A stretch of 64,000 nucleotides of DNA from assembly GCA_903884535.1 (NCBI GenBank), contig CAISEZ010000067.1:358-64357 (forward strand). Direction: 5' to 3'. Below, in pieces: positions 16,531 through 32,983 of this stretch. The stretch comes from an uncultured Verrucomicrobia subdivision 3 bacterium (GTDB lineage: Bacteria; Verrucomicrobiota; Verrucomicrobiia; Limisphaerales; UBA11358). Every line of letters begins with the position of its first letter. The first letter of the stretch is position 1. The notes beneath the pieces are model-generated. The model was not told the origin of the DNA, ran no database searches, and saw only the letters and a list, made by a program, of their open reading frames with translations. The translations under genes were made by a program, and so were the position numbers.

Positions 16531-17277
16531 TCAATGCGGATGGAGATGATGCAAAATATGCGGCCGCTCCAGCCCATGTGCGAGCATCAGCGGCTCGTCG
16601 GCGAGCAATTCCACGGTGCGCCCGTCGGCGATGATTTGGCCGTGATCTAGAATGATCGAGCGCGGACATAATTCCACGGCCATTTCCAAATCGTGCGTGG
16701 CGATGAGCTTGGTCGCCGGGATTTCCCGCAACAGCGCCTTGAACTCGCGCCGGCCGCGCGGATCGAGGTCGCTGGTCGGCTCGTCCAAAACCAGCATCGC
16801 CGGTTCGCACGCCAGCACGCCCGCGAGGCAGGCGCGGCGTTTTTCGCCGTGGCTCAGATGATGGGTGAAACGCTGCTCAAAGCCGGGTAACCCAACCTGG
16901 GCCAGAGCTAATTTCACACGCGCTGCAATTTCCGCTTCGCCCAGGCCAAGCTGTTGCGGACCGAACGCCACGTCCTCGGCCACTGTGGGGCAAAACAACT
17001 GGTCGTCCGGATCTTGAAATACCAGCCCGACCTGCCGCCGGATTTTAGCCAGATTTTCCGGCGCGAGCGCTTCGCCGGAAATTTTCACTGCGCCGTCGCC
17101 GATGATTTTTTCCGGGAGCAGCCCGTTCAAGTGCAGCAGCAACGTGGATTTGCCGGAACCGTTCGGCCCGAGCAGCGCAATGCACTCCCCCGGCGACACG
17201 CGAAAGCTGATGCCGCGCAAGGCCTCCGTGCCGTCGTGATAACGGTATTTCAGATTGGTGATTTCAATCGCGTTCAT
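16531..17277 (-). CDS. cbiO: ECF/CbiO-type ABC transporter ATP-binding protein (nickel/cobalt uptake)
   Basis: Walker A GPNGSGKST, signature LSHGEKRR and Walker B MLVLDEPTSDLD. It lies immediately downstream of cbiQ. Confidence 0.9.
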   Translation of the reverse strand: MNAIEITNLKYRYHDGTEALRGISFRVSPGECIALLGPNGSGKSTLLLHLNGLLPEKIIGDGAVKISGEALAPENLAKIRRQVGLVFQDPDDQLFCPTVAEDVAFGPQQLGLGEAEIAARVKLALAQVGLPGFEQRFTHHLSHGEKRRACLAGVLACEPAMLVLDEPTSDLDPRGRREFKALLREIPATKLIATHDLEMAVELCPRSIILDHGQIIADGRTVELLADEPLMLAHGLERPHILHHLHPH

Positions 17278-17889
17278 TTACTTCCAACCGCGCGCCGTCA
17301 TGGCGCTGTAAATCCGCTCGGCGCGTTCCGACGCGCGCACAAATAATTGTCCGACCACCGACGACAGCGTCTGCCATTGGAACCGTCGGCCGCGCGTGAA
17401 GGTCCGACTCGCGCGGGCGCGGCGCATCCGCTCCGTCTCGTCCGCCAGCACGAACAAATACCGGTGCATCAGCGTCAGCGTGGTGACAAACAGCCACGGC
17501 ACGCGCAGCCGTTGCAACACGCGCACCAGTTCCGTGAACGGCGTGGTGTTGGCCAGCAGAACCGTCGTGAGCAGACACAGGTTGGCCTTGACCATGACGG
17601 CCGCAAAAATCTTCCCGCCGCCCGGCTGAAACCACATCAGGCCCGCCACGCCCAGCACCAGCGGCTCCAGCAGCACCATCCGTTTCAACAAAAATAAAAA
17701 GGAAAGCCGGCTGAATACGAGCAAAGCTGTCAAGATGACTGCCACCACAAACAAGCCCGCTATCTGCGTGCGCGGCAGCAGCACGACGGCCAGCACCAGC
17801 GCCAGCGCGATGGCCAGTTTTAAACCGGCTGGCGAGCGGTGCAGCGCACTTTGGCCTTGGCCATGATCCATGAAATGACGGGCGGTCAT
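17278..17889 (-). CDS. cbiQ: ECF transporter transmembrane (T) component CbiQ/NikQ
   Basis: Multi-pass membrane protein with the C-terminal CbiQ-like ARASRTF...ERAERIYSAMTARG region. Its stop abuts the cbiO start. Confidence 0.8.
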   Translation of the reverse strand: MTARHFMDHGQGQSALHRSPAGLKLAIALALVLAVVLLPRTQIAGLFVVAVILTALLVFSRLSFLFLLKRMVLLEPLVLGVAGLMWFQPGGGKIFAAVMVKANLCLLTTVLLANTTPFTELVRVLQRLRVPWLFVTTLTLMHRYLFVLADETERMRRARASRTFTRGRRFQWQTLSSVVGQLFVRASERAERIYSAMTARGWK

Positions 17890-17990: not shown

Positions 17991-18938
17991 ATGCACATCC
18001 CCGATGGGTTTCTGGACGCCAAGACGCTCGCCCTCACCGGCGCGCTCTCGGTCGGCGGACTGGCCGTGGCGGCGCGGCAGGTCAACCGCTCGCTGCCACG
18101 CCACAAGATTCCGCTGATGGGATTGGGCGCGGCGTTTGTGTTCGCGGCGCAAATGTTGAATTTTCCTGTGGCCGGCGGCACTTCAGGCCACCTACTCGGC
18201 GGCGTGCTGGCCGGCGTGCTGCTCGGCCCCGGCGCGGCGGCGATTGTGATTGCCTGCGTGTTGACGGTGCAGGCACTGCTCTTCAGCGACGGCGGCGTGC
18301 TGGCGCTGGGCGCGAACATTTTTAATATGTCGTTCATCGGTGCGGTCGTCGGCTGCGCCATTTACCGGTCGGCGCGAAAAATTTTTCCAGGCTTACGCGG
18401 ACGCATCACGGCGGTGTTTTTCGCCGCCTGGCTTTCGACGGTGCTGGCGGCGGTGACATGCGCCGGAGAACTGGCCCTGTCCGGCACGCTGCCGCCGGAA
18501 GTGGTTTTTCCGGCGATGATCAGCGTCCATGTGCTCATCGGTGTCGGCGAAGGATTGATCACGTCGCTGGTGATTCTGGCGATTGCGCGGACGCGACCTG
18601 ATTTGCTCGAAGCGGAAGATGTCCCGACCACGCGTGGCACCGGCTGGGAATTTCTCGCATTCGGGTTGGTCATCGCGCTGGGGTTGGCGATTTTCGTTTC
18701 GCCTTACGCCTGCGCGTGGCCAGATGGATTGGACAAGATCGCGGCGAAATTCGGTTTTGCCGGCCATGCCGCCACACTCGTCAAGACGTGGATTCCCGAC
18801 TACAAAATGCCTGGCATCAGTTCGGCAGGTATCGCCACAGCCATCGCGGGAGCCGTCGGCACACTCATCATGTTCGGCCTCGCCTGCGTCGTTGGGCGCG
18901 TGCTGGTTCATAAAAAATCCGAAATGGACAAATCTTAA
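17991..18938 (+). CDS. cbiM: CbiM/NikM substrate-capture component fused to a C-terminal PDGLE domain
   Basis: The N-terminus MHIPDGFLD is the hallmark Met1-His2 metal-binding start. About seven TM helices are followed by ...CAWPDGLDKIAAKFGF (PDGLE motif) and a final TM helix. No separate cbiN is present. Confidence 0.85.
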   Translation: MHIPDGFLDAKTLALTGALSVGGLAVAARQVNRSLPRHKIPLMGLGAAFVFAAQMLNFPVAGGTSGHLLGGVLAGVLLGPGAAAIVIACVLTVQALLFSDGGVLALGANIFNMSFIGAVVGCAIYRSARKIFPGLRGRITAVFFAAWLSTVLAAVTCAGELALSGTLPPEVVFPAMISVHVLIGVGEGLITSLVILAIARTRPDLLEAEDVPTTRGTGWEFLAFGLVIALGLAIFVSPYACAWPDGLDKIAAKFGFAGHAATLVKTWIPDYKMPGISSAGIATAIAGAVGTLIMFGLACVVGRVLVHKKSEMDKS

Positions 18939-18944
18939 GCTTTT

Positions 18945-19373
18945 ATGAAAAGAGAAACCGCCACGCGCTTCAGCGTTTCGCTGCCGCCCGCGCTGCTCGA
19001 ACAACTGGATGAGATGACGCACGAAAAAGGCTATGACAACCGCTCGCTTGCCATTGCTGACATGATCCGCGCCCAGCTCGTGGAGCACCGCCAAAAATCA
19101 GATTCCGGCGAAATCGCCGGAACCATCACGCTGGTCTATGACCATCACAAGCCGCATTTGCAGGCGAGTCTCACAGACATCCAGCACGATCATCACGATG
19201 CAATTCTCTCCACGGTTCACGTCCACTTGGATCATCACAACTGCCTGGAAGTTTTGATCGTGCGCGGCAAGGCCAGCGTCATCCGCCGGATTGCCGACGA
19301 GCTCATCGCGGCGAAGGGCGTGAAGCACGGCAAGCTCACAGTGACGACGACGGGAAAAGATTTGCCGTCCTAA
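18945..19373 (+). CDS. nikR: nickel-responsive transcriptional regulator NikR
   Basis: N-terminal ribbon-helix-helix (RFSVSLPPALLEQLDEM). The C-terminal ACT-like domain carries HVHLDHHNC, which gives the H-x-H-x5-C spacing of the E. coli NikR high-affinity Ni site. Confidence 0.9.
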   Translation: MKRETATRFSVSLPPALLEQLDEMTHEKGYDNRSLAIADMIRAQLVEHRQKSDSGEIAGTITLVYDHHKPHLQASLTDIQHDHHDAILSTVHVHLDHHNCLEVLIVRGKASVIRRIADELIAAKGVKHGKLTVTTTGKDLPS

Positions 19374-19391: not shown

Positions 19392-20573
19392 TCAACTTTT
19401 GCTCAAACGCTCCACCGGTTTTTCGAAAAACATCCGGTGCGCTTCTTCGAGGATGTCCGGGAGGCGGTCGGCAAACGGACTGTTCTTCAATACGCCGCGC
19501 AAATCGTGTTCGCGCAGTTTCGCGGCGTTCTCGCCGGGAAACCAGTGTTCAGCCTGGCCAAGTAGATTGTAGCGCATTTTGCCCCACGCCAGCAGGTCGA
19601 GCGGTTTGGCGTAGGTCCAAAGGCGCAAAATTTCCGAGAGGTTAATTTGGCCGGGAACATCCCCATAGTTCGGCAAACCTTCAAACCACCGTGCACACCA
19701 GTCGGCACCGAGAATTTTTTCCATTTCATTGCGCCAGCGTTTTTCAATCGGCGCAATTGTCGCGGGAATGTTATCGTAAAATTCCAGCGCGGCGACGTGC
19801 TCGTCAAAATCCGCCGGCTTCGCCGCGCCACAACTCAAGGTGTGAACTTCCGGACGATTGAGACAATAAAGATCATTGAACTGCATTGGCGTGAGCGGCG
19901 CAGACAGCGCTTTGATTTTTTCGCCCGGCTCCTGAAGTTTGCCGCCCTTGTCGTTCGGGCTGATGATGAACATACCCATGTCCAATTTGTTTGCGGCGAC
20001 GACCGCCGGCCAGTTCAGGTCGTTGACGAAATACCAGTGCAGGTTGACATAATCGAATTCGCCAGTATTGACAGCCTCCAAAATGGTATCCGTGGTGCCG
20101 TGCGTGGAAAAACCGATGTGATGGCAGCGGCCCTCCTTCTGCAGTTTCCGCGCGGCTTCAAGACAACCGCCTTTCTTCAGCGACCAGTCGAGCGTCTCGC
20201 GGTGGTTAATGCCGTGCAACGACAACAAGTCCACATGATCCAGCTTCAGGTAGTTCATCGAGTCGTCGAATGTCTTGAGAAATTCTTCCGCCGTCGCCTT
20301 GGGAGAAACCTTGGTCTGCACGATCATTTTGTCGCGCGGCAGTTTCGGCAACAACGCGCCGAGCTGCATTTCCGATGTGCCGTAACCGCGGGCGGTTTCG
20401 ATGTGATTGATGCCGAGTTCCAGCGCGCGATGAATGCAGGCCTCGAGGTTTTCCTGGTTGGCGCGGGGAATTTCCTGCGGCGGCACATCCTGCCATTTGT
20501 GCTGGTAACGCATCCCGCCGCAGGAAATGACCGGCATCTGCAAATTGGTCCGGCCAAAACGACGATATTTCAT
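19392..20573 (-). CDS. aldo/keto reductase family oxidoreductase
   Basis: [23 protein letters not shown]...[16 protein letters not shown] is a typical AKR N-terminus. The start is set at MKYRRF (20573). The 60-aa upstream extension is rejected. Confidence 0.8.
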
Positions 20574-20689: not shown

Positions 20690-21454
20690 ATGACAACGAC
20701 CGAAGCCGCGCAACTGCTGGACCGATTTCGCGACGGGAAAATCCCGCGCGCAAAAGTCCTGCACGCCTTTCAGGCCGCGCCGGTGGCCGACCTCGGTTTC
20801 GCGCAGGTGGACACGCACCGCGCGCTGCGGAAAAATTTCCCCGAAGTCATTTTCGGGGCCGGCAAGACGCCGGAACAAGTGGTGAAAATCGCGGCCAAAC
20901 TTTTGGAACACGGCCAGCAAGTGCTGGTCACCCGCATCACCGCCGACCATGCCCGCGCGCTCCGGAAAAAATTCAAACGCACCGTCCACCACACCCTCGC
21001 CCGCTGCGTGACCATCGAGAAAAAAACTTTACCCAAGCGCGCCGGCTTCATCGCCGTGGTCTGTGCCGGCACGAGCGATTTGCCGGTGGCCGAGGAAGCC
21101 GCCGTCACCGTCGAAGTGATGGGCAACCGCGTGGAACGCATTCACGACATCGGCGTGGCCGGCCTGCATCGGATGCTGGCGCGGATGGAAACCATTCAAG
21201 AGGCGAACGTCATCATCGCCGTCGCCGGCATGGAGGGGGCGCTGCCCAGCGTTGTTGCCGGCCTCGTTTCCAAGCCGGTCATCGCCGTGCCAACCAGCGT
21301 TGGCTACGGCGCGAGTTTCGGCGGGGTCGCCGCACTACTCGCCATGCTGAACAGTTGCGCCAGCGGCGTGACCGTGGTGAATATTGACAACGGCTTCGGG
21401 GCTGGTTACGCGGCAAGCCAGATCAATTCCTTGGCCACAGATAAACACAGATGA
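20690..21454 (+). CDS. larB: nickel-pincer cofactor biosynthesis protein LarB (PurE-like carboxylase/hydrolase)
   Basis: [31 protein letters not shown] and [16 protein letters not shown] are characteristic of LarB. The start is set at MTTTEAAQ. The last codons and the stop lie inside the CACAGAT repeat element. Confidence 0.9.
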
Positions 21455-21533: not shown

Positions 21534-22865
21534 ATGAAAACGCTTTACCTCGACATTTTCAGTGGCATTGCCGGCGACATGTTCGTCGCCGCGCTGCTCG
21601 ACCTCGGCGTGGACGCCGGGAAGCTCGAATGCGAATTAAAAAAACTCAAGCTCGACGGCTACCATCTGCACATCTCCCGCGGACAAAAGTCCGCCATTGC
21701 CGGCGTAAAATTTAATGTGCACCTCGCCCATGCGCACGACGACCACGAACATTCCCATGAACATGGCCACCAGCACGGCCATCATCACCATGCGCACGAA
21801 CATCCGCATGGCCACGAGCACGAGGATCACCACCACGACTACCAGCAAAATTTTGCCGAAATTAAAAAATTGATTTCCCGCAGCAAACTTTCCGCGTGGG
21901 TGAAGCAAAAATCCATCGCTGTCTTCCAGCGCATCGCCGTGGCGGAAGGGAAAATCCACGGCTTGCCGCCGGGCGAAGTTCACTTCCACGAAGTCGGCGC
22001 GGTGGATTCCATCGTGGACATCGTCGGCGCGGCCATCGCCCTGGAAATGCTCGGCAAACCGCGCGTATTCGCCTCGCCGGTGGTCGAAGGCACGGGCTGG
22101 ATTCAATGTGCGCACGGGCGTTTTCCCGTTCCCGCGCCGGCCACATTGGCCATTCTCGGCGCGCGAAAAATTCCCATTTCACAATGCGAGGAACCCCACG
22201 AACTTGTCACGCCCACGGGTGCGGCGCTGCTCGCGGAATTTGTCGAGAGTTTTGGCCCGATGGAAAATCTGGTCGCCGAAAAAATCGGCTTCGGCCTAGG
22301 CACGCGCGATAACCAGACGCGGCCAAATGTGCTGCGCGCCGTGCTAGGCACGCAGGCCAAAGCCCAAGGCCCAAAGGCCAAAGCGAGCGTCGCGATGCAA
22401 TCATCTGCCCATTTAGATTGGGAAATGGATCGCATCGCGGTGCTGGAAACGAATTTGGACGATTGCGCCGGAGAAATTCTCGGGGCATTGGTTGAAACTG
22501 CGCTGGCAGCCGGCGCGCTCGATGTTTTTCACACGCCGATTCAGATGAAGAAAAACCGGCCCGGCGTGCTGCTCACGGTTTTGTGCGCCGAAACGGACGC
22601 CGACAAATTCAGCGAATTCATTTTGCGGGAGACGACGGCGTTTGGTGTCCGCAAGACCATTGCGGAACGGCGCAAGTTGCGGCGCGAATTTGCCGACGTG
22701 AAAACCGCTTTCGGCAAGGTCACGGTGAAAATCGGCCGGCTTGGTGGTAAAGTGGTTCAAGTGGCGCCGGAATTTGAATCGGTCAGAAGACTGGCGGCGC
22801 AAAAAAAAGTGCCGGTAAAACAGATATTCGAGGCGGCGGTTCAAGCCGCAAAAAATTTAAAGTAA
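21534..22865 (+). CDS. larC: nickel insertion protein LarC (DUF111 family), single unfused ORF with His-rich tract
   Basis: N-terminus MKTLYLDIFSGIAGDMFVAALLDLG, the His-rich stretch HAHDDHEHSHEHGHQHGHHHHAHEHPHGHEHEDHHHD, and a C-terminal LarC2-like domain. Confidence 0.9.
   Translation: MKTLYLDIFSGIAGDMFVAALLDLGVDAGKLECELKKLKLDGYHLHISRGQKSAIAGVKFNVHLAHAHDDHEHSHEHGHQHGHHHHAHEHPHGHEHEDHHHDYQQNFAEIKKLISRSKLSAWVKQKSIAVFQRIAVAEGKIHGLPPGEVHFHEVGAVDSIVDIVGAAIALEMLGKPRVFASPVVEGTGWIQCAHGRFPVPAPATLAILGARKIPISQCEEPHELVTPTGAALLAEFVESFGPMENLVAEKIGFGLGTRDNQTRPNVLRAVLGTQAKAQGPKAKASVAMQSSAHLDWEMDRIAVLETNLDDCAGEILGALVETALAAGALDVFHTPIQMKKNRPGVLLTVLCAETDADKFSEFILRETTAFGVRKTIAERRKLRREFADVKTAFGKVTVKIGRLGGKVVQVAPEFESVRRLAAQKKVPVKQIFEAAVQAAKNLK
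22356..22383. repeat. imperfect heptamer tandem repeat (GCCAAAG/CCCAAGG/CCCAAAG/GCCAAAG) inside larC
   Basis: Read directly. It encodes AKAQGPKAKA in the inter-domain linker of LarC. Confidence 0.7.
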
Positions 22866-23695
22866 TGAGCGAAGCGAATAACAAACTGGAAACATTGCGG
22901 GCACTGCTGAAAAGCTACGGCTCCTGCCTCGTGGCGTATTCCGGCGGCGTGGATTCGGTTTTTCTCGCGCGTGTCGCACACGACGTTCTCGGCGACCGCG
23001 CGCTGGCGGCCATTGCCGATTCGGCGAGTTTGCCGCGCCGCGAACTGGCGGAAGCCCTCGACATCGCGACAAAATTCGGCTTCCCCGTGCGCGTGCTGCA
23101 CACGCAGGAATTTGCCAACGAAAATTACACAACGAACCCGGCGAACCGCTGTTATTTCTGCAAGCACGAGTTGTTCGAGGAATTGGCACCGCTGGCGCGC
23201 GCGGAAAATTTCGCCGTGATTGCCTACGGCGAAAACGCCAGCGACATTGGCGATTTCCGGCCGGGCGCAAAAGCGGCGGCCGAATTTCAAGTGCGCGCGC
23301 CGCTCAAGAAAGTGGGTTTGACCAAGGCGGAAATCCGCGAGCTATCCGCGCAGCTCGGTTTGCCGACGGCGGACAAACCGCAAATGGCGTGCCTGAGCTC
23401 GCGCGTGCCTTACGGCGAGACCGTGACGCCGGAAAAACTGCGGATGATCGAGCTGGCGGAATATGCGTTGCGGGATCTTGGCTTTCACGACGTGCGCGTG
23501 CGGCATCATGAACTGCAAAAACAAAATCTCGCCCGCATTGAAGTCGGCCCGGCAGAAATGCAAAAATTTTTGACGGACGGCTTTATGGATAAAATCGCCA
23601 GCGCCTTGAAGGAAATCGGCTACGCGCACGTCACGCTGGATTTACAAGGCTATCGGCGCGGCAGCACGAATGAAGCGTTAGCTAAAGGTGTTTAG
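22865..23695 (+). CDS. larE: LarE ATP-dependent sulfur transferase (PP-loop ATP pyrophosphatase)
   Basis: PP-loop VAYSGGVDSVFLA. Three Cys residues are present (NRCYFCKHE and QMACLSSR). The ATG overlaps the larC stop. Confidence 0.9.
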   Translation: MSEANNKLETLRALLKSYGSCLVAYSGGVDSVFLARVAHDVLGDRALAAIADSASLPRRELAEALDIATKFGFPVRVLHTQEFANENYTTNPANRCYFCKHELFEELAPLARAENFAVIAYGENASDIGDFRPGAKAAAEFQVRAPLKKVGLTKAEIRELSAQLGLPTADKPQMACLSSRVPYGETVTPEKLRMIELAEYALRDLGFHDVRVRHHELQKQNLARIEVGPAEMQKFLTDGFMDKIASALKEIGYAHVTLDLQGYRRGSTNEALAKGV

Positions 23696-23698
23696 TTT

Positions 23699-23767
23699 GG
23701 TGGCACCCGGCATCAATCGGCCCAAATCATGCCCGGCAAGTTTGAGCGGACTCACGTCCGCTGCTAC
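23699..23767. repeat. diverged second copy of the tilS-type palindromic element, between convergent larE and the zinc-ribbon gene
   Basis: The right arm gagcggactcacgtccgctgctac (23744-23767) is identical over 24 nt to 8961-8984. The left arm ggtggcacccggcatcaatcggccc resembles ggtggcagccgacgtgagtcggctc. Confidence 0.55.
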
Positions 23768-23973
23768 GAGGTCGGTGGCTTTTCCTGAAGGCGACGGAGC
23801 TGGTTTTCCAATTGCGTGACGCGGCTGCTGAGGCGCTCTAAAATTTTCCGGGTTTCGACAGGTATGACGACGCAGTCCTCACAATGATGGCGCGTCGCGG
23901 CACTGCCCTTGACGGGATATTCAAATTTCTTACCGCAGGCGCGGCAGGTGCGGGGACGTTCTCCGGAAGGCAT
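23764..23973 (-). CDS. small zinc-ribbon protein with C-terminal coiled-coil
   Basis: A 69-aa protein with two Cys pairs, CRACGKKF...HHCEDC, followed by the helical tail ILERLSSRVTQLENQLRRLQE. It is the last gene of the minus-strand redox operon. Confidence 0.45.
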   Translation of the reverse strand: MPSGERPRTCRACGKKFEYPVKGSAATRHHCEDCVVIPVETRKILERLSSRVTQLENQLRRLQEKPPTS

Positions 23974-23988
23974 CTTCGTAAAAGGTTT

Positions 23989-25611
23989 TCAGCGTTGCCG
24001 TTTTTCCAGTTCATTCACCGCGCTGGTCACGCCGCCATCCATCAGCAGCCGGCGGTCGCGCGAACGGGTTTCGCCGATGGCGGTGACGCGGATGGCGGCC
24101 TCGTCGGTGACAGGACATTCATGCTCACAGATGCCGCAACCAATGCACAGCGCGGGATCCATGTAAGGCTGGCGCAGGGTAATGGAATTGCCGTCGCGCT
24201 TGATGATGGTGACTTCGCGCGAGAAAATGGCTTTGGGCGACACGGGACAAACTTCCTCGCAGACGACGCACGGCGTTTCCATGGCCCACGGCAGGCAGCG
24301 GCCACGGTCAAAGAAGGCGGTGCCGAGCTTGATCGGCCCTTCCGTCACGAACGGTCCGGTGCCGGTTTTTTCCTCAATGGTCACGCGCTGGATCGCGCCG
24401 GTGGGACAGACCTGGCCGCAGAGCGTGCAGTTCACCTCGCAGAAGCCGAGCTTCATGTTGAGGATCGGCGTCCAGACGCCTTCCAGGCCGGATTCGAAAA
24501 CAGCAGGTTGCAGCACATTCGTCGGGCAAGTGCGAATGCACTGATCACATTTTATGCAGCGGTCGAGAAAATCTTTTTCCTCCACGGAACCGGGCGGGCG
24601 GATGACTTTCTTGTCGTAATTGCGGTCGCTTGCGCCGGAGGTGCGGCCAAACGCGTAAAAACCCAATCCAATCAACGTGCCCAGAAAGGCGCGGCGGCCG
24701 GTCACGACGGGCGCGGTGACTTCCTGTTTGAGCGAAGGCAAAAATTTGAAGGAGAGCGCATCTTCCGGGCAATCCTCGATGCAGTTAAAACAAACGAAGC
24801 ATTCACTCTTGCGCAATTGCGTGTGCGGGTCGGACGCGCCTTCGCAACTTTTCAAACACAAATCGCAGTCCACGCACTTGGTAGTGTCGCGGTCAATGCG
24901 CCATAGCGCCGCTGTGGACAGCGTGCCGAGAAACGCGCCCAGCGGACACAGCACGCGGCAGAAGAAACGCGGGATGACGACATTCATGCCGACGAGGAAC
25001 AGCAGCATGAAACCAATAATCCACGCGCCGACGTGAAAGTATTGCCGGACGTAAATGGACGATGGGAAAAGCAAATTGAGCATCGGCAAAACTACGGTGC
25101 TCATGGAGCGATGAAACAGGCAGATTGGGTCGAGCCAGCCAATTTGCAACGTGCCGCCGATAGCCGCAGCGATCATCGCGATGAGGATGACGTATTTCAG
25201 CGAATATAATTTTTTGTAGCGGTTTGCTTCGATGCGCTCGCGTTCGTCGGCGTGGCGCTTGCCCAGCAGCCAGCCGGTGAAGTGATGCAGAATGCCGTAG
25301 GGACAAATCCAGTTGCAAAAAATACGTCCGAACAGCAGCGTCGGCAAAATCAGCAGCAAGCTCCACATCAGCCCCATATAAACCGTATGCGTGGTGATGG
25401 CCGTGGCAAAAGAAACGAGCGGATCGAGTTCGAGAAACAGCGAGACCGGATAGCCTTTGAGGTAGCGCAGGTCGGTGACGAAGACGAAAAACAAAAACAG
25501 CGTGAAGAAAAAAACCTGTGCAACGCGGCGGACGTTGCGCAGCTTGAGCAGATCCGAAAAATTGAATTTGAATTTCACGCCTGCACTTCTTTGTAAAGGG
25601 TGTTTTTCCAA
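23989..25611 (-). CDS. membrane-bound polyferredoxin (NapH/MauN-like 4Fe-4S binding protein)
   Basis: The N-terminal half has several TM helices and the CNWICPYG motif. The soluble half has multiple CxxCxxCxxxCP motifs ([55 protein letters not shown]). The start is uncertain because it overlaps the upstream gene by 37 nt. Confidence 0.8.
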
Positions 25612-26594
25612 TCCACTTTGCCGAGGCCCCGGTCGTTCGCTTTGTGCAGATAAGTCAGTTCGGCGATGTCGCGTTCGAGCAAATGCGAATAGCCGTAACT
25701 GTCCACGGCAACCATGTCCGTGCCGGCCACAATCGTATTCATCACCTTCACATCGGACAGGCGGCCACCGGTCGGGCCGTTGCTCATCAGCACATTCATG
25801 CCGTCAAGGATGACCAACGTGGGTTTCATCATCAGGGCAAAATCGGAGACGATGCTGTGGATGTGTTGATGAAATTGATTCCGTCGGCCGCCCAGCAGCC
25901 CATACCAGTTTTTAGTCGTCATCGAGGCATGGCAGAGGTTGTGATCCTTGCACGGTGCGAGGCCGATGACTTTCGTCGCGCGCTTGAAGGGCGTATTGAA
26001 AAAAGTCCATTCCTTCAAAATCTCGCCGTCAAGCGACAGCGGCGCGAAAGAATTTGTTTCGGGATACAGCAAATCCAGATTCATTTCCGACGCGACGGCG
26101 GTCAGACCGCTCTTGAGAAAACAGCCGGTCGGTGAATTGATCGGGTTGTCGGCAATGACGACTTTGTGCGCGCCGGCCTCAAAACAAAGTTTGGCCACGG
26201 CGCGCAGCGCGTCGGGATGCGTCGTGGCGGCGAGCGCGGGCGGACGATCGAACGCGACATTCGGCTTAATCATCACCACATCGCCGTTTTGAATGAAGCG
26301 CTCCATGCCGCCGAGAGCGGCCATTGCGGCGCGGATAGTCTTTTCATGTTCCGTGCCGTGCGCGATGGCAAGCGACGGATACACTTTACTGATTTCCGGC
26401 GCGTAGCTGCGGAGTTGCAGGCCTTTTACTTTTTCAAAACCGGGGACGAAGTGTTTCGGCTGCCAAAGCTTGCGGGCGGCCAGACCGGAGCCGGCAATGA
26501 GCGCGCCGGTGATGCCGAGACGCACCAAAAATTCGCGCCGGCTGACGGAATTTTCCGGTGACCGCGTTGAATCGTTCTGGTTCGATGAACTCAT
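25575..26594 (-). CDS. Tat-exported DUF362 domain protein
   Basis: Twin-arginine signal [18 protein letters not shown]. The body (VMIKPNVAF...[17 protein letters not shown]...VVIADNP...[10 protein letters not shown]...[11 protein letters not shown]...[10 protein letters not shown]) matches the DUF362 pattern as I recall it. Confidence 0.7.
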
Positions 26595-26615
26595 TTTAAT
26601 CGTTAGCTAATCTAT

Positions 26616-27803
26616 TCACTTAATCTCGCCGCGCAAATACTTTTCGATGAACGCCCGCGCCTTGGCCGCATCGGTTGCGTCGAACACGCCGCCGAGTTCA
26701 CCTTCGCGCTGATAAATGACTTTCCATTTGCCGAAAACTTGGGCGCTGAAAATTTTCCCGCCGTTCACGTCCGGCAGCACTTCCGCCTTGCCGAACCGCG
26801 CGCAAAAATCCTGAAACGATTGCCACGCCTTGGCCGCAGCATCCGGCGTGGCGACCATGATGAAAAACGGCAGTTCCGCGCCGTCAGAATTATATTTTGC
26901 CTGAAACACCTCCTTGAAATCCGCCTGGCCCTGCGCGTTTTCCGGCACGAACGACACGCTGTCGGCGATCATGCCGGCGGCGGGCAGCTTGCGTCGACCC
27001 GCCAGACCGGAATCATCCACCGGTAAAACTTGCGCGCGGTTTTGCGCAATCGCTTTCGCCAGCGCCAGTGTTTCCGGCTTCACATCCGACGCGATGATCT
27101 GAACATAGACGGCACCCTGCCGATAAAAGTAACCCATCTCGCCGGAATAACCATCAGGCGCAAAATCCAGCGGCTGGCCTTTCGGGTCACGTTCCAGCGC
27201 GAACATGCCGAACGCGTCCACCGGCGAGTCGAAACGGTATTCGTAAATGTCCACAAAACTACCGGCCGCCGCGACGACGCTGAATGTGCGGCAACGAAGT
27301 TGTTGGACGTTGAAGCTTTGATACGCCGGTGAACGGCCGTCAATTTTTTCGTAGAGATTGTCGGAATTATAAAATTCCGTGGGCGACATCGGCTTGAGGC
27401 CGTCGAGCGCGATTTCCATCGGTTCGCCTTTTTCGGCGGGCTTGGGTGTCGTGCCTGATCCTTCCGCGCCGCCTTCTGCCGAACCTTCCTCGGCGGCGGC
27501 CGGCTTTGCGGCCACCGGATTTTCCGCAGCCGGTTTTATTGCCGGCGTCGAAAGCGCAGTGCCGGTTTTGCCCTCGACGGCGACGGCGGTGGATTTCAGA
27601 GAGTCAGTGCGGACGGCGAAAAGATTCGGGTCAAAATGTTTCCCCTTGATCGCGATGGCGAGGCCAATGCCCGCAAGCAAAACAACGATGACCACACTGG
27701 CGAGGCGCTCGGCCAATGGAATGTTGGTGCGGACAAATTCGCGGCGGTTGCCGGCGGCAGATTTTTTCTCGTTCGCCATGAATTCAAAATTGAGAACCGC
27801 CAA
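26616..27803 (-). CDS. hypothetical N-terminally membrane-anchored periplasmic protein
   Basis: One TM helix (LASVVIVVLLAGIGLAIAI), an Ala/Pro/Glu-rich linker and a ~270 aa globular domain with no motif I recognise. The alternative start MANEKK is at 27779. Confidence 0.55.
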   Translation of the reverse strand: MAVLNFEFMANEKKSAAGNRREFVRTNIPLAERLASVVIVVLLAGIGLAIAIKGKHFDPNLFAVRTDSLKSTAVAVEGKTGTALSTPAIKPAAENPVAAKPAAAEEGSAEGGAEGSGTTPKPAEKGEPMEIALDGLKPMSPTEFYNSDNLYEKIDGRSPAYQSFNVQQLRCRTFSVVAAAGSFVDIYEYRFDSPVDAFGMFALERDPKGQPLDFAPDGYSGEMGYFYRQGAVYVQIIASDVKPETLALAKAIAQNRAQVLPVDDSGLAGRRKLPAAGMIADSVSFVPENAQGQADFKEVFQAKYNSDGAELPFFIMVATPDAAAKAWQSFQDFCARFGKAEVLPDVNGGKIFSAQVFGKWKVIYQREGELGGVFDATDAAKARAFIEKYLRGEIK

Positions 27804-27859
27804 ACCAGACGGGCTGGCAGCGAATAGATTTCAAGCCATATCTTCCCGCAGTTCCGCAA

Positions 27860-29086
27860 TCAGGCGAAGTAGCGCTCGGCGCGACGGATGATTTCCGGAT
27901 AGTCCGTCTTGGCGTGGCAGCCATCGCGCAACGCGGCGAGATCCACCTGCGAAGCATCCCGAACGGACGCCGGCAGCGCCTGGTAATAGTCGCGCGCCTC
28001 GAGGTTGCCGTCCTGTTCGTAGTAGGTGACGAACCGGGCGATGTCGTGGAAAGCAAAACCGGTTTGTTTGGCAAACGCCTCGCATGACGGACAGCCGGTG
28101 CACATGGTGCGGCGGCCGGCGAGCAGGGTTTCCCGGAGCAGTTCCATGTGCGCGAATTTGAGCGGCGCCTTGTAGCTGCGCGCGGCGGCGGTGCTGCTGG
28201 TCATCTGGTCCACGTTGTCAATCATGTTGCAGATGACGGAAATGCGCGGGTCGCTCCAGGCGGAATGCAGCACGGCCTGATGCGTGGTCAGGCCGAGCTT
28301 GTCGAGTTCCGGCAGGCGCTTCGGCACGTCCTTGGTGCTGCGCATCGTCTTCATCGCGACGAGGCCGATGCCGGCTTTGTGCGCGGCGTCAATCGCCTTG
28401 TCGAGCGGGCCGTCTTTGGGATAAAACGGATTGAACGCGAGCATGATGATGTCAATGAACCCGCCTTCTGCCGCCGCGTTCAAATAATCCGGCAACCGGC
28501 CGTCGTGACAGGAGAAACCGACCATTTTAACCTTGCCGGAGCTTTTCAATTTCTCGGCAACTTTTTTGTAGGCATCGCTCTTCGGCCAGTTCAAGGAATC
28601 CTCGCCGTATTCACGCGGGCCGAGACCGTGGATGTAAAACGCGTCGAGATAAGTCGTGCCGCACGCCGCAAGCCGCTTGTCAATCATCTCCAGCAACTGC
28701 TCCGGGCCTTGGTGAGGATGATCCTTGGAGACGAGAAAAATTTCCTTGCGGCGCTCCGGATATTTGGCGAGCCACTGGGCAAAGATCCCTTCCGACTTGC
28801 CCTTGAGATAACAATCAGCCGTGTCGAAATAGCGGATGCCCATGGACCACGCGATGTCAATGTAGTCCGTGTTTAGTGCGGCCATCATGCCGCCCATGCA
28901 GAGCATCGTGACCGCCGGTCCGCTATTGCCAAGCTGACGGCGCGGCAGCGCATCGGTGGACGCGGGCACCTCGGCAGCCATGGCGGCTTGCGTGAACAGC
29001 GACGGCGCAGCGGCCAGCGCGACGGGCAACGACATGGTGGATTTGAGAAAGTTACGGCGGGAAGTGGGCGGCAGGTTTTCTTTCAT
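27860..29086 (-). CDS. Tat-exported aldo/keto reductase with C-terminal CxxCxxC motif
   Basis: Twin-arginine signal SRRNFLKSTMSLPVALAAAP, an AKR core (IRYFDTADCYLKGKSE) and a C-terminal MCTGCPSCE cysteine motif. Confidence 0.8.
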   Translation of the reverse strand: MKENLPPTSRRNFLKSTMSLPVALAAAPSLFTQAAMAAEVPASTDALPRRQLGNSGPAVTMLCMGGMMAALNTDYIDIAWSMGIRYFDTADCYLKGKSEGIFAQWLAKYPERRKEIFLVSKDHPHQGPEQLLEMIDKRLAACGTTYLDAFYIHGLGPREYGEDSLNWPKSDAYKKVAEKLKSSGKVKMVGFSCHDGRLPDYLNAAAEGGFIDIIMLAFNPFYPKDGPLDKAIDAAHKAGIGLVAMKTMRSTKDVPKRLPELDKLGLTTHQAVLHSAWSDPRISVICNMIDNVDQMTSSTAAARSYKAPLKFAHMELLRETLLAGRRTMCTGCPSCEAFAKQTGFAFHDIARFVTYYEQDGNLEARDYYQALPASVRDASQVDLAALRDGCHAKTDYPEIIRRAERYFA

Positions 29087-29107: not shown

Positions 29108-29803
29108 CTAGCATCTGCCGAAAAAACTGCAATCCGATTTGAACCCCATTGCCAAGGTCACCCCCCCCTGTTTGCGGGCCAATTTCATGACCGCCTCGGT
29201 CTGGCTGTGAACATGCAACTTCTCATAGATGCGTTGAATGTAAGTGCGCACAGTGCTGAGGCTGATGCCCAGTTCGTTGGCTATTTCCTTGTAGGGATGA
29301 CCGCGGGAGAGCGACTGGAGCACCTCCAATTCGCGGGCGGTGAGCGATTCGGTTTCCTCGCAGGCGGCGGCATTTGCGGCAGCGTGGGATTGAAACGATT
29401 GCACGACTTTGCGGGCAATGTGGCCGGACATCGGCGAGCCGCCGTCAAACACCTCGCGGATGGCCTCGAGAATTTTCGCCGGGCGATTGCTCTTCACCAG
29501 ATAACCAAATGCTCCCGCCGATAAAGCCTGAAAAACCTGTTCCCCTTCCTCGAAGACGGTCAGCATAATGATCTTCAGCGTCGGCGTAACTTTGCGTAAC
29601 TTTGCGACGCATTCAATGCCGCTCATGCCGGGCAGGTTGATGTCCATCAGCACAACATCCGGCAGATGCAGCGGCAGGTCGGCCAGCGCGGCTTCGGCAT
29701 TCGCGTAGGCTTTCAGACAGCGATAACCCGGCTGTCCGGCAAAATAACGCACCAACGTTTCACGCAGCTTGGCATCGTCTTCGACAATGGAAACTTTTAT
29801 CAT
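29108..29803 (-). CDS. NarL/LuxR-family response regulator
   Basis: Receiver domain (IVEDD...VVLMDINLPGMSG) and a LuxR helix-turn-helix (LTARELEVLQSLSRGHPYKEIANELGISLSTVRTYIQRIYEKL). The start is set at MIKVSIVEDD. Confidence 0.9.
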   Translation of the reverse strand: MIKVSIVEDDAKLRETLVRYFAGQPGYRCLKAYANAEAALADLPLHLPDVVLMDINLPGMSGIECVAKLRKVTPTLKIIMLTVFEEGEQVFQALSAGAFGYLVKSNRPAKILEAIREVFDGGSPMSGHIARKVVQSFQSHAAANAAACEETESLTARELEVLQSLSRGHPYKEIANELGISLSTVRTYIQRIYEKLHVHSQTEAVMKLARKQGGVTLAMGFKSDCSFFGRC

Positions 29804-29947
29804 CGTGGATTCAAGGACGGCGACCGGATCGAGCCGCGTCACTGCCGAATTTACCACACCCATGTCTGGAACCATATTCATTTTCTACTGCCATCGTAGC
29901 CGGAAGCCGGATCAGCGGATAGTCGGATAAAGTGTGGACAAGCCGGA

Positions 29948-32900
29948 TCATGGTGCCGCCTCGGGGTTGCGGGGCGCCTGGAAAACGATGCGTGTGCCCT
30001 GCCCGGGCGTGCTGGTGCATTCCACCTGCCCGCCGACGCTGCGCAAACGTTCCTTCATGTTTCCCAAACCATTGCCGCCCCCCGCGCGCTTCGGCGGGGC
30101 CGCCACATCAAAACCAGCACCGTCGTCTTCGATGATAATTTTGAATTCATTCCCGGCGAGTGCCAACTGCACCCGCACGCGCCGGGCGTTGGCATGTTTA
30201 AGCACGTTGGTAAAAGCCTCCTTGGCGGCCAGAAAAACCTGATGCCGAACCTCGGTCGGCAACCCACAATTCGGCATTTCCGGCGGCAGATCGAAAACGC
30301 ATCGCACAAGACTGCCGTCAAAATAATCCTCCGCATATCGGCAGAGATAATTCACCAAATCGGCCAGCGTGTCATTGCGGGGATTGACGGCCCAGACCAC
30401 TTCCTCAAAGGAGCGAATGGTTTCGCGCGCGGTATCGGAAATCTCCTTCACATCGCCACTCGCGGTGGCCGGCAAGTCGGGGTTGCCTCCGGCCATCTCG
30501 CTCAACAGCGAAAGGCGCGTCAGCTTCGCGCCGACTTCATCGTGCATGTCGCGGGCAATGCGGGCGCGTTCCCGTTCCAGCGCCGACTGCTGCTCCAACC
30601 GCAGCATGCGCAGCCGCAGCCGGCGGAAAGAAACATAGCGCACAATCGCCACCACGCTCGCGGTGAAGGCGAGCAGCACCAGTGCGCGAAACCACCATTC
30701 CTGCCAGAAGAATGGCGCCACCACAATGGCCACCACCGCGCCGGTGTCGTTCCAAACGCCGGCATTGTTGCAGGCCAGCACGCGGAAGCGGTAATCGCCG
30801 GCCAGCAGATGGGGATACCGCGCGCTGCGTTCCGCTTTGCCTGCGTCCAGCCATTTTTCATCATAGTTTTCGAGGCGATAGCGGAATCGGACATTTTCCG
30901 GCGAGGCGAAACTCAAGGCGGCAAATTCAAATTCCACCTTGCGATGGCCAGGGGGAATGTGCAGCACCGCGTCGGCTTGGCGCAGATCGGGCAAGCCGGT
31001 GCCGTCCTCGGTTTGCACTGGCGAACCGCCGGCATAGAGCGCCGCCGTTTGGTCATCCACTTGCGCGCGTTCCACGACCACCGGCGGCGGCGCGGGATTG
31101 GCGCGGATGTTTTCCGGCTGCACCGTCAGCAGGCCGCTGCGCAGGGCAAACCACAAGCGTCCGTCATCGGCCTTGCAGACGTTGGGAAAGCTAGAAGTGT
31201 TTGGCTGAAAATTCGGCAACCCTTCGTTTCGGCCGAAGACCTGCGAGCGCAATTTTCCCGGCCGACCGCCGGCCACCGCCGCCAGTTCATTCGATTGCAC
31301 CTGGAACACGCCGCGGTTGCCAACGATCCAGAGATTTCCGCTCCGGTCCGCCAAAAGTTGCGAGGCGAAATCATCCATCAAACCATCGGCCTCGGTGATA
31401 CGGGTCATTTTCCCCGCCTGTAACCGGCCAATGCCCGCGCCGGCATAGCCCACCCACAAAGCCCCGTCGGCCGTGGTTTCCAATGCCCGCACCGGCGAAC
31501 TGTTTTCCTGCATGACCGCCGTTTCGACAACCAGCGACGAATCTTCGACTCGCAAAACCTGTCCTTCCAGCGTGCCGACCCAGAGGGTGCCGTCGTCGCT
31601 CTCGGTCATTGCGCGGATGGTGTGATTCACGCCGGGCAGCGGTAACGGATCCGCCAACTTGCCGTCGCGCAGCCGTTGTATCCGGCTGGGCGAACCGGTG
31701 ACAACCCAAACATCGTCATTCGCGGCCACAAAAATCAGATGCACCGCCCCGCCCCGCAGATTGTTTGTCCGCTGCCAAGATTGCCAGACACCGTTGTGGA
31801 AAAAATTCAAAGTGCGGTTGCGGGCGCCGACCCACACGCCGCCTTTTTTGTCCGCCGCCACACACGTCGCCGCATCGTTCGTCCAACCGGCATCCGCCCC
31901 GAATATTTCCCATTTACCGTTTTGCAATTTTGACAAAGTTCCACTTTGCGAAGCGACCCACATGACGCCTTCCGTGTCCTGGCAGACGGACGCCACCGAT
32001 TCAAACGGCAGGCCCGCGTCGCGCCCGATTAGTTTGACGGCGCTGGAGCGGATGAAATTCAAACCGCCGCCACGCGTGCCTGCCCAAATGTTGCCTTCGC
32101 GATCTTCACTCACGCAGTTCACCGATTGATGTGAGGTGGGGACTTTTTCCAACACGCCGGCTTTGAACCGGAAGAGTCCGTCCGCCGCGGTGCCAATCCA
32201 CAACGCGCCCGCACGAGTTTCAAATAGCACTTGCGGTTCAACATTGTTGGTGAACCGCGCGAGTGCCAACGGCGTTTGATTTTCCTCATATTTCAACAGG
32301 CTGGAGCCGACGCAAAGCCACAAACCTGAATTCGCCGCCCCCAAAATGCGGACGGACGTTTCATTGAAGGATAATTTTTGCTGAAACCGGCCATCGCGAA
32401 AGACGCCCACCTGCCCGCCTTTGGAAAGCCACAATTCGCCGTTGGCATCGCTGCATACCCAAGCATTGACGCCCGCTGGCAAACCTTCCGACGTGGAAAA
32501 CCGGCTGACCTTGTCATTCTTGATCCGGCACAGCGCGCCGGAAGAAATAATCCAGATCGCGCCTTCGCGATCCAGCGCCATGGACGTGATCCGCTCGGCG
32601 GACAACCCGTCGGCGGTGCCGAAGGTCCGCACTTTGTTGGCCTCCAAACAAATCACCGCCCCGGAATCCATCCCCAGCCAGAAATTTCCGTGAGGATCTA
32701 TCAGCATCGCGCGCACGGATTTTTTTAGCAGGCTCGGCAGCGGCACTGCCGAAAAACTCGTGCCATTGAAACGCATCAATCCGCCGTAGGTTGCCACCCA
32801 CAAATAACCGTCGGCAGTTTGCGCCACCCCCGTGACACTGTTGTCCGGCAAACCGTCTTCCGTCTGCCAGGCGCGAAACGACCAGTGGGACGTATCCGTC

Positions 32901-32983
32901 GCCACTTGAGCGCGCCCGAACTGCAAAGCAAAAACCAATGGCAACAAAAGCAAAAAAATCAAATATCTAAAGCGAACGGGCAT
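29948..32983 (-). CDS. sensor histidine kinase with periplasmic beta-propeller (Reg_prop repeats) and Y_Y_Y domain
   Basis: A signal or TM segment, then many repeats of the DGxLWVGTxxGL type, then Y_Y_Y-like FRYRLENYDEKW and a TM helix. The HisKA_3 H-box is ARDMHDEVGAKLTRL and the HATPase motif is DDGAGF...GGNGLGNMKERL. Confidence 0.9.
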   Translation of the reverse strand: MPVRFRYLIFLLLLPLVFALQFGRAQVATDTSHWSFRAWQTEDGLPDNSVTGVAQTADGYLWVATYGGLMRFNGTSFSAVPLPSLLKKSVRAMLIDPHGNFWLGMDSGAVICLEANKVRTFGTADGLSAERITSMALDREGAIWIISSGALCRIKNDKVSRFSTSEGLPAGVNAWVCSDANGELWLSKGGQVGVFRDGRFQQKLSFNETSVRILGAANSGLWLCVGSSLLKYEENQTPLALARFTNNVEPQVLFETRAGALWIGTAADGLFRFKAGVLEKVPTSHQSVNCVSEDREGNIWAGTRGGGLNFIRSSAVKLIGRDAGLPFESVASVCQDTEGVMWVASQSGTLSKLQNGKWEIFGADAGWTNDAATCVAADKKGGVWVGARNRTLNFFHNGVWQSWQRTNNLRGGAVHLIFVAANDDVWVVTGSPSRIQRLRDGKLADPLPLPGVNHTIRAMTESDDGTLWVGTLEGQVLRVEDSSLVVETAVMQENSSPVRALETTADGALWVGYAGAGIGRLQAGKMTRITEADGLMDDFASQLLADRSGNLWIVGNRGVFQVQSNELAAVAGGRPGKLRSQVFGRNEGLPNFQPNTSSFPNVCKADDGRLWFALRSGLLTVQPENIRANPAPPPVVVERAQVDDQTAALYAGGSPVQTEDGTGLPDLRQADAVLHIPPGHRKVEFEFAALSFASPENVRFRYRLENYDEKWLDAGKAERSARYPHLLAGDYRFRVLACNNAGVWNDTGAVVAIVVAPFFWQEWWFRALVLLAFTASVVAIVRYVSFRRLRLRMLRLEQQSALERERARIARDMHDEVGAKLTRLSLLSEMAGGNPDLPATASGDVKEISDTARETIRSFEEVVWAVNPRNDTLADLVNYLCRYAEDYFDGSLVRCVFDLPPEMPNCGLPTEVRHQVFLAAKEAFTNVLKHANARRVRVQLALAGNEFKIIIEDDGAGFDVAAPPKRAGGGNGLGNMKERLRSVGGQVECTSTPGQGTRIVFQAPRNPEAAP

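Follow-up and report, generated by a model that had tools for sequence, protein, structure and literature searches.

What is achieved by an operon that sends an aldo-keto reductase (AKR) and a protein of the DUF362 family out of the cytoplasm by way of twin-arginine translocation (Tat) and places a polyferredoxin (PFD) in the membrane beside them? The question is raised by a 64,000-nt stretch of DNA (hereafter the window) from an uncultured Verrucomicrobia subdivision 3 bacterium (GenBank assembly GCA_903884535.1, contig CAISEZ010000067.1, positions 358 to 64,357), in which a preliminary description, made from the sequence letters, had picked out five co-directional genes as an uncharacterised, Tat-dependent envelope redox operon. 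We found that the five genes are a conserved cassette, far beyond chance clustering, and that the label uncharacterised stands, as no paper in the literature searched describes such a cassette. What is new is the combination, namely an exported AKR with a His/Lys motif and a four-cysteine (Cys4) site, a DUF362 protein with a predicted LarA fold, a DUF6599 protein and a polyferredoxin of the Sec/Tat-inserted kind, each of which belongs to or resembles a known family. Our proposal, which we hold tentatively, is that the cassette encodes a periplasmic oxidoreductase that would be loaded with the nickel-pincer cofactor before Tat export, would be wired by iron-sulfur (Fe-S) clusters to the quinone pool, and would probably oxidise sugars or hydroxy acids.

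All five open reading frames (ORFs) of the preliminary description are present on the minus strand, and are given here in the order of transcription.

27860..29086, minus strand: Tat-exported aldo-keto reductase (Tat-AKR), 408 aa; PF00248 at 1e-20
26616..27803, minus strand: DUF6599 protein, 395 aa; PF20244 at 1.6e-34
25575..26594, minus strand: Tat-signal DUF362 protein, 339 aa; PF04015 at 1.5e-42, TIGR01409 passed
23989..25611, minus strand: polytopic polyferredoxin (PFD), 540 aa; NCBIfam NapH over residues 26-291 and NapG over residues 316-510
23764..23973, minus strand: zinc-ribbon protein (CxxC...CxxC), 69 aa; weak zinc-ribbon matches

The small gaps and overlaps reported for the operon were also found, with gaps of 56, 21 and 15 nt and an overlap between the DUF362 and PFD ORFs. 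This overlap is 37 nt long if the PFD starts at its TTG codon, or 4 nt (GTGA) if it starts at GTG 25578; in the latter case, the stop codon of DUF362 overlaps the start codon of the PFD, which is the arrangement in relatives, and GTG 25578 is likely to be the true start. The true start of the DUF6599 protein is likely to be ATG 27779.

A cassette shared across phyla

We examined the conservation of the operon from two anchors. For the DUF362 anchor, 80 loci were taken from GTDB contigs with one genome per species, and their ORFs were searched with the window proteins; the locus scan used a 16-sequence DUF362 alignment, an 88-sequence one being too diverse, and a locus was counted as evaluable when it extended at least 4.5 kb on both sides of the DUF362 gene (n = 41). 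The PFD gene is present in 39 of the 41 evaluable loci (about 95%) and the DUF6599 gene, directly upstream of DUF362, likewise in 39, while an AKR gene is found in 31 (76%). The zinc-ribbon gene lies downstream of the PFD gene in 18 of these loci, mostly from Verrucomicrobiota. When metagenome loci were anchored on the AKR instead, DUF362 and the PFD were each found in 17 (about 89%), and DUF6599 in 16, of the 19 that were evaluable. Since both anchors agree, DUF6599-DUF362-PFD is the conserved core and the AKR is its frequent, almost exclusive partner. Clustering all the neighbouring ORFs of the 80 loci gave no further recurrent family.

The preliminary description had proposed synteny of the Tat-exported DUF362 protein, the polyferredoxin and the Tat-AKR as a check, and these genes are indeed conserved together across more than 10 phyla, including Verrucomicrobiota, Kiritimatiellia, Planctomycetota, Armatimonadota, Sumerlaeota, Latescibacterota and Poribacteria, with further carriers in Myxococcota, Desulfobacterota, Gemmatimonadota, Hydrogenedentota, Leptospirales and others. 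A cultured carrier, Desulforhabdus sp. TSK (L072), encodes the complete cassette including an AKR. The AKR gene lies upstream of the core in Verrucomicrobiae, often as 2-3 tandem paralogues, and follows the PFD gene elsewhere. In ten loci (our loci L001, L002, L003, L007, L014, L083, L085, L086, L117 and L123), one DUF6599-DUF362-PFD core is accompanied by two or three Tat-AKR paralogues in tandem, which suggests that the paralogues have diversified as substrate modules that can be exchanged on a single electron conduit. The window itself derives from Limisphaerales-like Verrucomicrobiota of lake water. Contigs from freshwater-sediment metatranscriptomes, belonging to relatives that are ~88% identical, cover the cassette genes and span two junctions, AKR/DUF6599 and PFD/zinc-ribbon. 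Such assembled contigs give weak support to expression and co-transcription, without proving an operon.

A few loci depart from the common form. In two Desulfobacterales loci (L067:1653-11540 and L073:5061-15994), a DUF6599-DUF362 pair occurs without the polyferredoxin. Convergent to it lie genes for true LarA homologues, for a PdxA-like dehydrogenase and a DUF1537-type kinase, and for a TRAP transporter, in what looks like an acid-sugar catabolic cluster. In three non-Verrucomicrobial loci (L030:13897-14663, L031:5227-6056 and L119:3671-4437), the zinc-ribbon gene comes after the AKR gene, on the other strand, and is paired with a small NapG/ferredoxin-like ORF; the zinc-ribbon protein may have an Fe-S partner of its own. 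Three loci (L001, L006 and L018) are labelled 'uncultured Bifidobacteriaceae bacterium'; they are 75-92% identical to the Verrucomicrobiota-type cassette, and the labels look wrong.

The exported AKR and the nickel-pincer genes

The closest known parallel to the Tat-AKR is NphT (Semersky et al., Nat Chem 2026, PMC13524815; PDB 9YEB), a hydride transferase of the AKR superfamily that depends on nickel-pincer mononucleotide (NPMN), oxidises aldoses and in which His144 ligates nickel and Lys200 tethers the nickel-pincer cofactor covalently as a thioamide. Canonical AKRs do not have this His/Lys pair, and the D47/Y52/K75/H106 tetrad is retained in NphT (PMC13524815). The Tat-AKR and NphT are both PF00248 proteins with a D-Y-K-H tetrad, a nickel-ligand His and a tether Lys. 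The tetrad of the Tat-AKR (D88/Y93/K121/H153) aligns with that of NphT and is kept in all the cassette AKRs, and H194 (in GFSCH) and K246 (in AMK) align with His144 and Lys200 of NphT in both MAFFT and BLASTP, where 6KIK, a canonical AKR, has Phe (in SNF) and Ser (in YSPL). In the Tat-AKR, a Cys stands in place of the nicotinamide-binding Asn of the SNF motif. By eye, its C-terminal segment ICNMIDNVDQM also appears to be without the usual Lys/Arg of the NAD(P)-phosphate motif.

The preliminary description had reported a twin-arginine signal and a cysteine motif in this protein, and both hold. The signal (TSRRNFLKS, a hydrophobic stretch, then AMA/AE) was read directly from the sequence, the match to the TAT_signal model being weak, and the cysteines are C329-x2-C332-x2-C335 and C390. 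In the unbiased set of AKRs found via the DUF362 anchor, the His, the Lys, the tetrad and the four C-terminal cysteines are kept in all 52, and the RR signal in nearly all. The metagenome set, with its 88 AKRs, gives the same picture, although the Lys was there partly fixed by the search pattern. Unlike NphT, the Tat-AKR has a twin-arginine signal, and would hence be periplasmic, and an extra C-terminal domain of ~100 aa with the four conserved cysteines, and its gene is part of a polyferredoxin cassette. By contrast, NphT works in the cytoplasm as a monomer that carries out a redox-neutral disproportionation, and its paper mentions no signal peptide, periplasm or Fe-S cluster (PMC13524815). 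As to whether the AKR or the DUF362 protein corresponds to enzymes of an already defined pathway, the AKR has a match at the level of the enzyme family, and no defined pathway was matched.

The genes around the operon include those for cofactor synthesis and nickel supply, as well as a two-component system.

29948..32983, minus strand: Reg_prop/Y_Y_Y/HisKA_3 sensor kinase; Pfam and NCBIfam matches
29108..29881, minus strand: NarL-type response regulator; Pfam and NCBIfam matches
22865..23695, plus strand: larE; NCBIfam equivalog LarE, 317 bits, above cut-off
21534..22865, plus strand: larC; NCBIfam equivalogs LarC1 and LarC2, above cut-off
20693..21454, plus strand: larB; NCBIfam equivalog LarB, 306 bits, above cut-off
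19392..20570, minus strand: cytoplasmic NphT-family AKR (AKR#2), between nikR and larB; best PDB match 9YEB
18945..19373, plus strand: nikR; Pfam/NCBIfam matches
17991..18938, plus strand: cbiM-PDGLE; Pfam/NCBIfam matches
17278..17889, minus strand: cbiQ-like gene; ORF and transmembrane (TM) content only
16531..17277, minus strand: cbiO; Pfam/NCBIfam matches

The nickel-pincer genes larBCE are convergent on the operon, with the Tat-AKR gene four genes away, and a hidden Markov model (HMM) of LarA had no match in any frame of the window. They had been described as having no obvious client enzyme. This view had to be given up, since AKR#2 lies between nikR and larB, and the Tat-AKR carries the NphT His/Lys motif. 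The best PDB match of AKR#2 is NphT (9YEB, E=4.5e-25; next match 3.8e-11). It has the nickel-ligand His, a Ser in place of the covalent Lys, an E-Y-K-H tetrad and no signal peptide, and thereby fits the 'His without Lys' class, which makes up 40% of lar-linked AKRs (PMC13524815). AKR#2 is the obvious candidate for the first client of the lar genes. A C-terminal extension of ~140 aa in AKR#2 contains no Cys.

NphT, the Tat-AKR and AKR#2 are thus all encoded beside larBCE without larA, with AKR#2 lacking the tether Lys. The setting in which NphT was discovered, near larB, larC and larE and without larA within ~20 ORFs (PMC13524815), was found in the window and in four further loci (L026, L038, L093 and L112), where the lar genes are likewise next to the cassette, with at least two further gene arrangements among them; most of the other loci do not have it within 10 kb. 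The arrangement in L038 is identical to that of the window, whereas L026 (Puniceicoccaceae) has the order AKR, larE, one unassigned ORF, larC, larB. In L112, a peat contig, a LarB that is 90% identical to that of the window is encoded beside a different, divergent copy of the cassette. This locus (L112:741-9565) reads DUF6599-DUF362-PFD-Tat-AKR, followed by two more His/Lys AKRs, of which the first has a Tat signal and lies on the opposite strand, and then by larB and larC. Relatives may carry two types of cassette around their lar genes. We infer that larBCE provide the cofactor for the operon.

Other features of the neighbourhood concern nickel, regulation and glycans. The window LarC has a long His-rich insert at residues ~57-101 (HAHDDHEHSHEHGHQHGHHHHAHEHPHGHEHEDHHHD), presumably a nickel-binding or nickel-storage stretch. 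The cbiO and cbiQ-like genes are divergent from cbiM-PDGLE and nikR, and a HupE/UreJ-type permease is encoded at 46036-47223 on the minus strand. The two-component genes lie directly upstream on the operon strand, the NarL-type regulator ending 21 nt before the AKR start, so that the transcription unit may comprise seven genes, and the pair may act as a local regulator of the operon. It was not conserved beside the cassette in relatives when the GTDB loci were searched with the window proteins, and we therefore rejected the idea that the two-component system belongs to the conserved cassette. A promoter and terminator scan gave counts no higher than in shuffled sequence. Beyond the sensor kinase, from 33087 to 64000 on the minus strand, lies a long co-directional run of genes for secreted enzymes typical of sulfated-glycan breakdown, including four sulfatases, a PL8 lyase, a heparinase-like 'alginate lyase', GH8 and GH2 enzymes and an FGE-sulfatase/arylsulfotransferase fusion, together with PhoD-like and PBP/YHYH proteins and two metallophosphoesterases.

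The DUF362 protein and its membrane partners

The second exported protein had been presented as a Tat-exported member of a family with no established function. The Tat signal stands (SRREFL passes TIGR01409, and at least 90% of 88 DUF362 sequences retain the RR motif), but the protein is not featureless, as it has a predicted LarA fold. An AlphaFold2 model built from 87 diverse homologues reached a predicted local distance difference test (pLDDT) score of 91.7, compared to only 44 with 22 near-identical sequences. When this model was compared with the PDB by Foldseek, the top 18 matches were all of the LarA family, with a probability of 1.00 for the top 14 and of 0.97-0.99 for ranks 15-18, E values from 1.7e-5 and 221-317 aligned columns, with TM-scores of only 0.33-0.45. 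The matched folds are lactate and malate racemases, LarA-like nickel-pincer (NPN) enzymes and 4NAR, and the LarA superfamily (5HUQ, 2YJG, 9EIA, 6D6Z and 9Q3J) provides the only strong PDB fold matches of the model. As modelled, the DUF362 protein is a LarA-fold protein, for which a cofactor pocket is plausible. At the sequence level, single-sequence and profile searches of the PDB gave nothing meaningful, and LarA_N (PF09861/DUF2088) and LarA_C (PF21113) had no match in a protein that matches PF04015 only. Pfam clan CL0471 holds both DUF362 and LarA_N (PMC11770544), and hence DUF362 is a sister family within this clan, not to be filed as a member of LarA. Unlike LarA, the DUF362 protein is ~150 aa shorter, carries a Tat signal for export and is translationally coupled to a polyferredoxin.

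In 88 DUF362 sequences with 27-46% identity, the invariant residues are K110, N112, P127, K216, H218, K228, G232, R238, H242, D264 and P274. In LarA, His108 and His174 are catalytic, Lys184 tethers the cofactor and His200 ligates nickel; LarA homologues with a single catalytic His exist (PMC12611868). Two hhalign runs, against LarA alone and against a 123-sequence LarA profile, placed H218 on His174 and K228 on Lys184, with a probability below 1%. H242 follows K228 by 14 residues, compared to 16 between Lys184 and His200 of LarA, and these weak alignments did not pair it with His200. A strand-loop Asn/Asp-Arg-Pro in DUF362 resembles, by eye, the cofactor-phosphate site D72...R75-P76 of LarA (residue roles from PMC12611868). 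Three other attempts were discarded: a global hhalign mapping was nonsensical, a local one with a profile of 3 LarA sequences led to another match, itself weak, and a DUF362 HMM run against 123 LarA sequences gave no usable alignment. The residue mapping from DUF362 to LarA should thus be read as a lead, not as a result.

We know of no activity or cofactor for any DUF362 protein. At 50% identity, 4666 clusters match the window protein. Members of the family often accompany Fe-S domains, and elsewhere they are fused to CBM9 and dockerins (PMC5742341). The association with Fe-S domains would fit a redox role, and the CBM9/dockerin fusions hint at carbohydrates.

The polyferredoxin had been called NapH-like with at least five clusters. 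Six cysteine motifs of the 4Fe-4S type are indeed present, but the protein is a NapH-NapG fusion and not NapH alone. Its NapH-like half has four TM helices, two CX3CP motifs (C99/C103 and C218/C222) and two cytoplasmic 4Fe-4S motifs (C246-C256 and C271-C281). An internal twin-arginine motif (TGRRAFLG) then precedes a fifth, weakly hydrophobic transmembrane domain (TMD5; mean hydropathy 0.94, versus 1.5-2.3 for TMD1-4), which is followed by positive charges and by the NapG-like half, predicted to be periplasmic, with four 4Fe-4S motifs. All eight cysteine motifs, as well as R306 and R323, are conserved in 66 homologues. NapH-NapG fusion PFDs were described by Tooke et al. (eLife 2017, PMC5449189), who used reporter fusions with the MLMS-1 PFD (Q1NSB0) to show that Sec and Tat cooperate in its insertion, and who left the partners and the physiological function open. 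The MLMS-1 and window proteins share five TMDs, an RR before a weakly hydrophobic TMD5, positive charges after it, two CX3CP motifs and two cytoplasmic plus four periplasmic NapG-type cluster motifs, and the window PFD is, by these features, of the same dual Sec/Tat-inserted kind. As the PFD carries an internal Tat signal, the operon would have three Tat-dependent parts and not two. Its partners in the window are DUF362, DUF6599 and the AKR, and such partners lay beyond the scope of the earlier study (PMC5449189). None of napA, napB, napC and napD was found among the window ORFs and Pfam matches or among the recurrent families of the 80 loci. An accessory module of the Nap, Nos or Mau type was rejected, since the catalytic partner genes of these three systems are missing.

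The 395-aa protein had been described as being without a recognisable motif, whereas it matches Pfam DUF6599. It has one N-terminal TM helix (residues 34-52), an Ala/Pro/Glu-rich linker and a predicted periplasmic domain. Y233 and K153 are conserved; the alignment has no conserved Cys or His, and single-sequence and profile searches found no relative in the PDB. An N-terminal 'RREF' was rejected as a Tat motif, since 12 mostly polar residues lie between it and the helix. The 69-aa zinc-ribbon protein is as previously described, with C10, C13, C31 and C34 and a C-terminal helical tail, and is probably a cytoplasmic accessory.

A candidate route for electrons and its rivals

A conserved unit of two N-terminal Tat substrates with a membrane polyferredoxin of the quinone type is most naturally read as a periplasm-facing electron-transfer module, as the preliminary description had it. 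The periplasm has no NAD(P)H pool, and an AKR working there therefore needs a tethered hydride carrier, brought through Tat. In the mechanism that we propose, LarB, LarE and LarC would make the nickel-pincer cofactor in the cytoplasm, where it would be tethered to Lys246 of the AKR and possibly also bound by DUF362 at His218, Lys228 and His242, and where an Fe-S cluster would be inserted at the Cys4 site of the AKR. The folded AKR, the DUF362 protein and the NapG half of the PFD would then cross the membrane by Tat. In the periplasm, a hydride from an alcohol, an aldose or a 2-hydroxy acid would pass onto the AKR-bound cofactor, and electrons would leave singly, from the AKR cluster through the six PFD clusters and across the membrane to a NapH-type quinone site. 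DUF6599 might anchor or scaffold the soluble partners, and the zinc-ribbon protein might be a cytoplasmic helper.

The oxidative direction is favoured by the established redox potentials, as reduction of an aldehyde or ketone by (mena)quinol is uphill and oxidation of an aldose or alcohol to quinone is downhill, and by the aldose oxidation of NphT. The weakest step is the substrate. The guess of sugars or sugar acids draws on the substrates of NphT, the 2-hydroxy-acid chemistry of LarA, the Y_Y_Y sensor and the adjacent glycan-degrading island. The working mode itself has parallels: the periplasmic glucose-fructose oxidoreductase of Zymomonas, the membrane-bound glucose dehydrogenase with pyrroloquinoline quinone (PQQ) and the likewise membrane-bound gluconate 2-dehydrogenase with flavin adenine dinucleotide (FAD) are cofactor-loaded and Tat-exported or periplasm-facing. 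They take a hydride on a non-dissociating cofactor, oxidise sugars or sugar acids outside the cytoplasm and pass electrons to the quinone pool. Their folds and cofactors are different (Gfo/Idh/MocA with NADP; PQQ; FAD with haem c), and, with no sequence relationship, the analogy is one of working mode only.

Several points weigh against this proposal. About a quarter of the cassettes (10 of the 41 evaluable) have no AKR nearby. The Tat-AKR is only 24% identical to NphT overall, and 9YEB is not among its PDB matches at E<=0.01, so that it is to be seen as a separate AKR lineage carrying the motif and not as an orthologue of NphT; the His/Lys motif itself is a sequence proxy for a predicted nickel-pincer cofactor. 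The Fer4 model had no match in the C-terminal Cys4 region (Pfam, 12 diverse members), and Fe-S binding by the AKR is hence predicted from the conserved CxxCxx(x)C...C(P) pattern alone. The hhalign matches between DUF362 and LarA are statistically weak (<1%), with other settings giving other answers, and no conserved His of DUF362 takes the place of LarA His108 in the 88-sequence alignment or in hhalign. Since the dockerin-fused DUF362 proteins are presumably Sec-secreted, the family need not carry a cofactor made in the cytoplasm. We know of no case in which a pyridinium-type cofactor hands a hydride to one-electron Fe-S carriers unless a flavin takes part, and there is no sign of a flavin here. 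Finally, of 161 loci, only 5 have lar genes within 10 kb, and most of the close relatives have none there, which makes the lar linkage recurrent, not general.

This scarcity of lar genes, also in the loci of close relatives, would be expected if the same exported, Fe-S-wired module worked without the nickel-pincer cofactor. In that case, the Tat-AKR would hold permanently bound NAD(P), as in periplasmic glucose-fructose oxidoreductase, or only a metal at its Cys4 site, DUF362 would bind another ligand or metal, and the lar genes would serve only AKR#2, already a sufficient client, with their adjacency to the cassette being incidental. The low overall similarity of the Tat-AKR to NphT and the weak DUF362-LarA residue mapping point the same way, as do the DUF362-CBM9-dockerin proteins, which suggest that some DUF362 proteins work without a cofactor loaded in the cytoplasm. 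Such a module would, however, leave unexplained the His and Lys at both NphT cofactor positions in 52 of 52 unbiased AKRs across phyla, the replaced nicotinamide-binding Asn of the SNF motif, the lar genes beside a different cassette copy in a relative, and the Tat signal kept by at least 90% of the DUF362 subfamily, which implies that these proteins are exported folded and probably with their cofactor in place. We regard this explanation as unlikely, but still as one to be taken seriously. It is rather improbable, in our estimate, that electrons flow the other way, with the PFD oxidising quinol as in NapGH and the AKR, DUF362 or both reducing some compound in the periplasm, for instance a quinone, an oxidised sugar or a reactive carbonyl, in a protective or repair role like that of MsrPQ and with or without the nickel-pincer cofactor. 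NapGH is a characterised quinol dehydrogenase and MsrPQ a parallel (PMC5449189), AKRs are mostly reductases (PMC13524815), and the presence of the cassette in aerobes and anaerobes would fit a housekeeping role; set against this are the uphill reduction of carbonyls by (mena)quinol, judged from established redox potentials, the oxidation of aldoses by NphT and a local context of glycan degradation, not of stress response.

It is also conceivable that DUF362 and DUF6599 are not enzymes but assembly, docking or anchoring factors for the PFD, which would make the AKR the sole catalytic subunit. DUF362 has neither a Cys cluster nor an equivalent of LarA His108, and DUF6599 has neither a conserved Cys or His nor a known relative. 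However, the 10 evaluable cassettes without an AKR within reach keep DUF362-PFD with the coupled 4-nt overlap, and the invariant K/N/K/H/K/R/H/D set of DUF362, placed on a LarA enzyme fold, is of the kind that marks active or cofactor sites, so that we consider a purely non-enzymatic role very unlikely. Our preferred reading, a nickel-pincer-loaded periplasmic oxidoreductase wired to the quinone pool, can be taken one step further, to a version that we think doubtful. The nickel-pincer cofactor would then be no closed-circuit hydride shuttle but the converter of hydrides to single electrons on two unrelated scaffolds of one exported complex, the NphT-type AKR and a LarA-derived DUF362. Such a respiratory dehydrogenase would carry out successive oxidations in the periplasm; for example, the AKR would convert an aldose to an aldonate, DUF362 would convert the aldonate, a 2-hydroxy acid, to a 2-keto-aldonate, and the electrons would pass via the PFD to quinone.

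The nickel-pincer enzymes known to us (LarA racemases, NphT and an ornithine cyclodeaminase) are all cytoplasmic and redox-neutral, and the literature searched held nothing that links such enzymes with the periplasm, Tat or Fe-S clusters, and no mention of DUF6599. If our proposal is true, the cassette would contain the first nickel-pincer enzyme to work outside the cytoplasm, which would also be the first with a link to a respiratory chain and to energy metabolism, and would explain how an AKR can function in a compartment without NAD(P)H. If the cofactor also works on both scaffolds, DUF362 would be a third structural class of nickel-pincer enzyme, and the frequent pairing of DUF362 with Fe-S domains would reflect a general NPN-to-Fe-S chemistry. 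The cassette helps to answer why many genomes without LarA keep larBCE, and it provides hypotheses for two large orphan families, DUF362 and DUF6599, and for the partners of the Sec/Tat polyferredoxin. For electrode-driven biocatalysis, a hydride enzyme that brings its own electron outlet would be attractive. The cassette is abundant in Verrucomicrobiota of lakes, peat and sediment as well as in many uncultured phyla, with transcripts in sediment, and its substrate could matter for carbon turnover.

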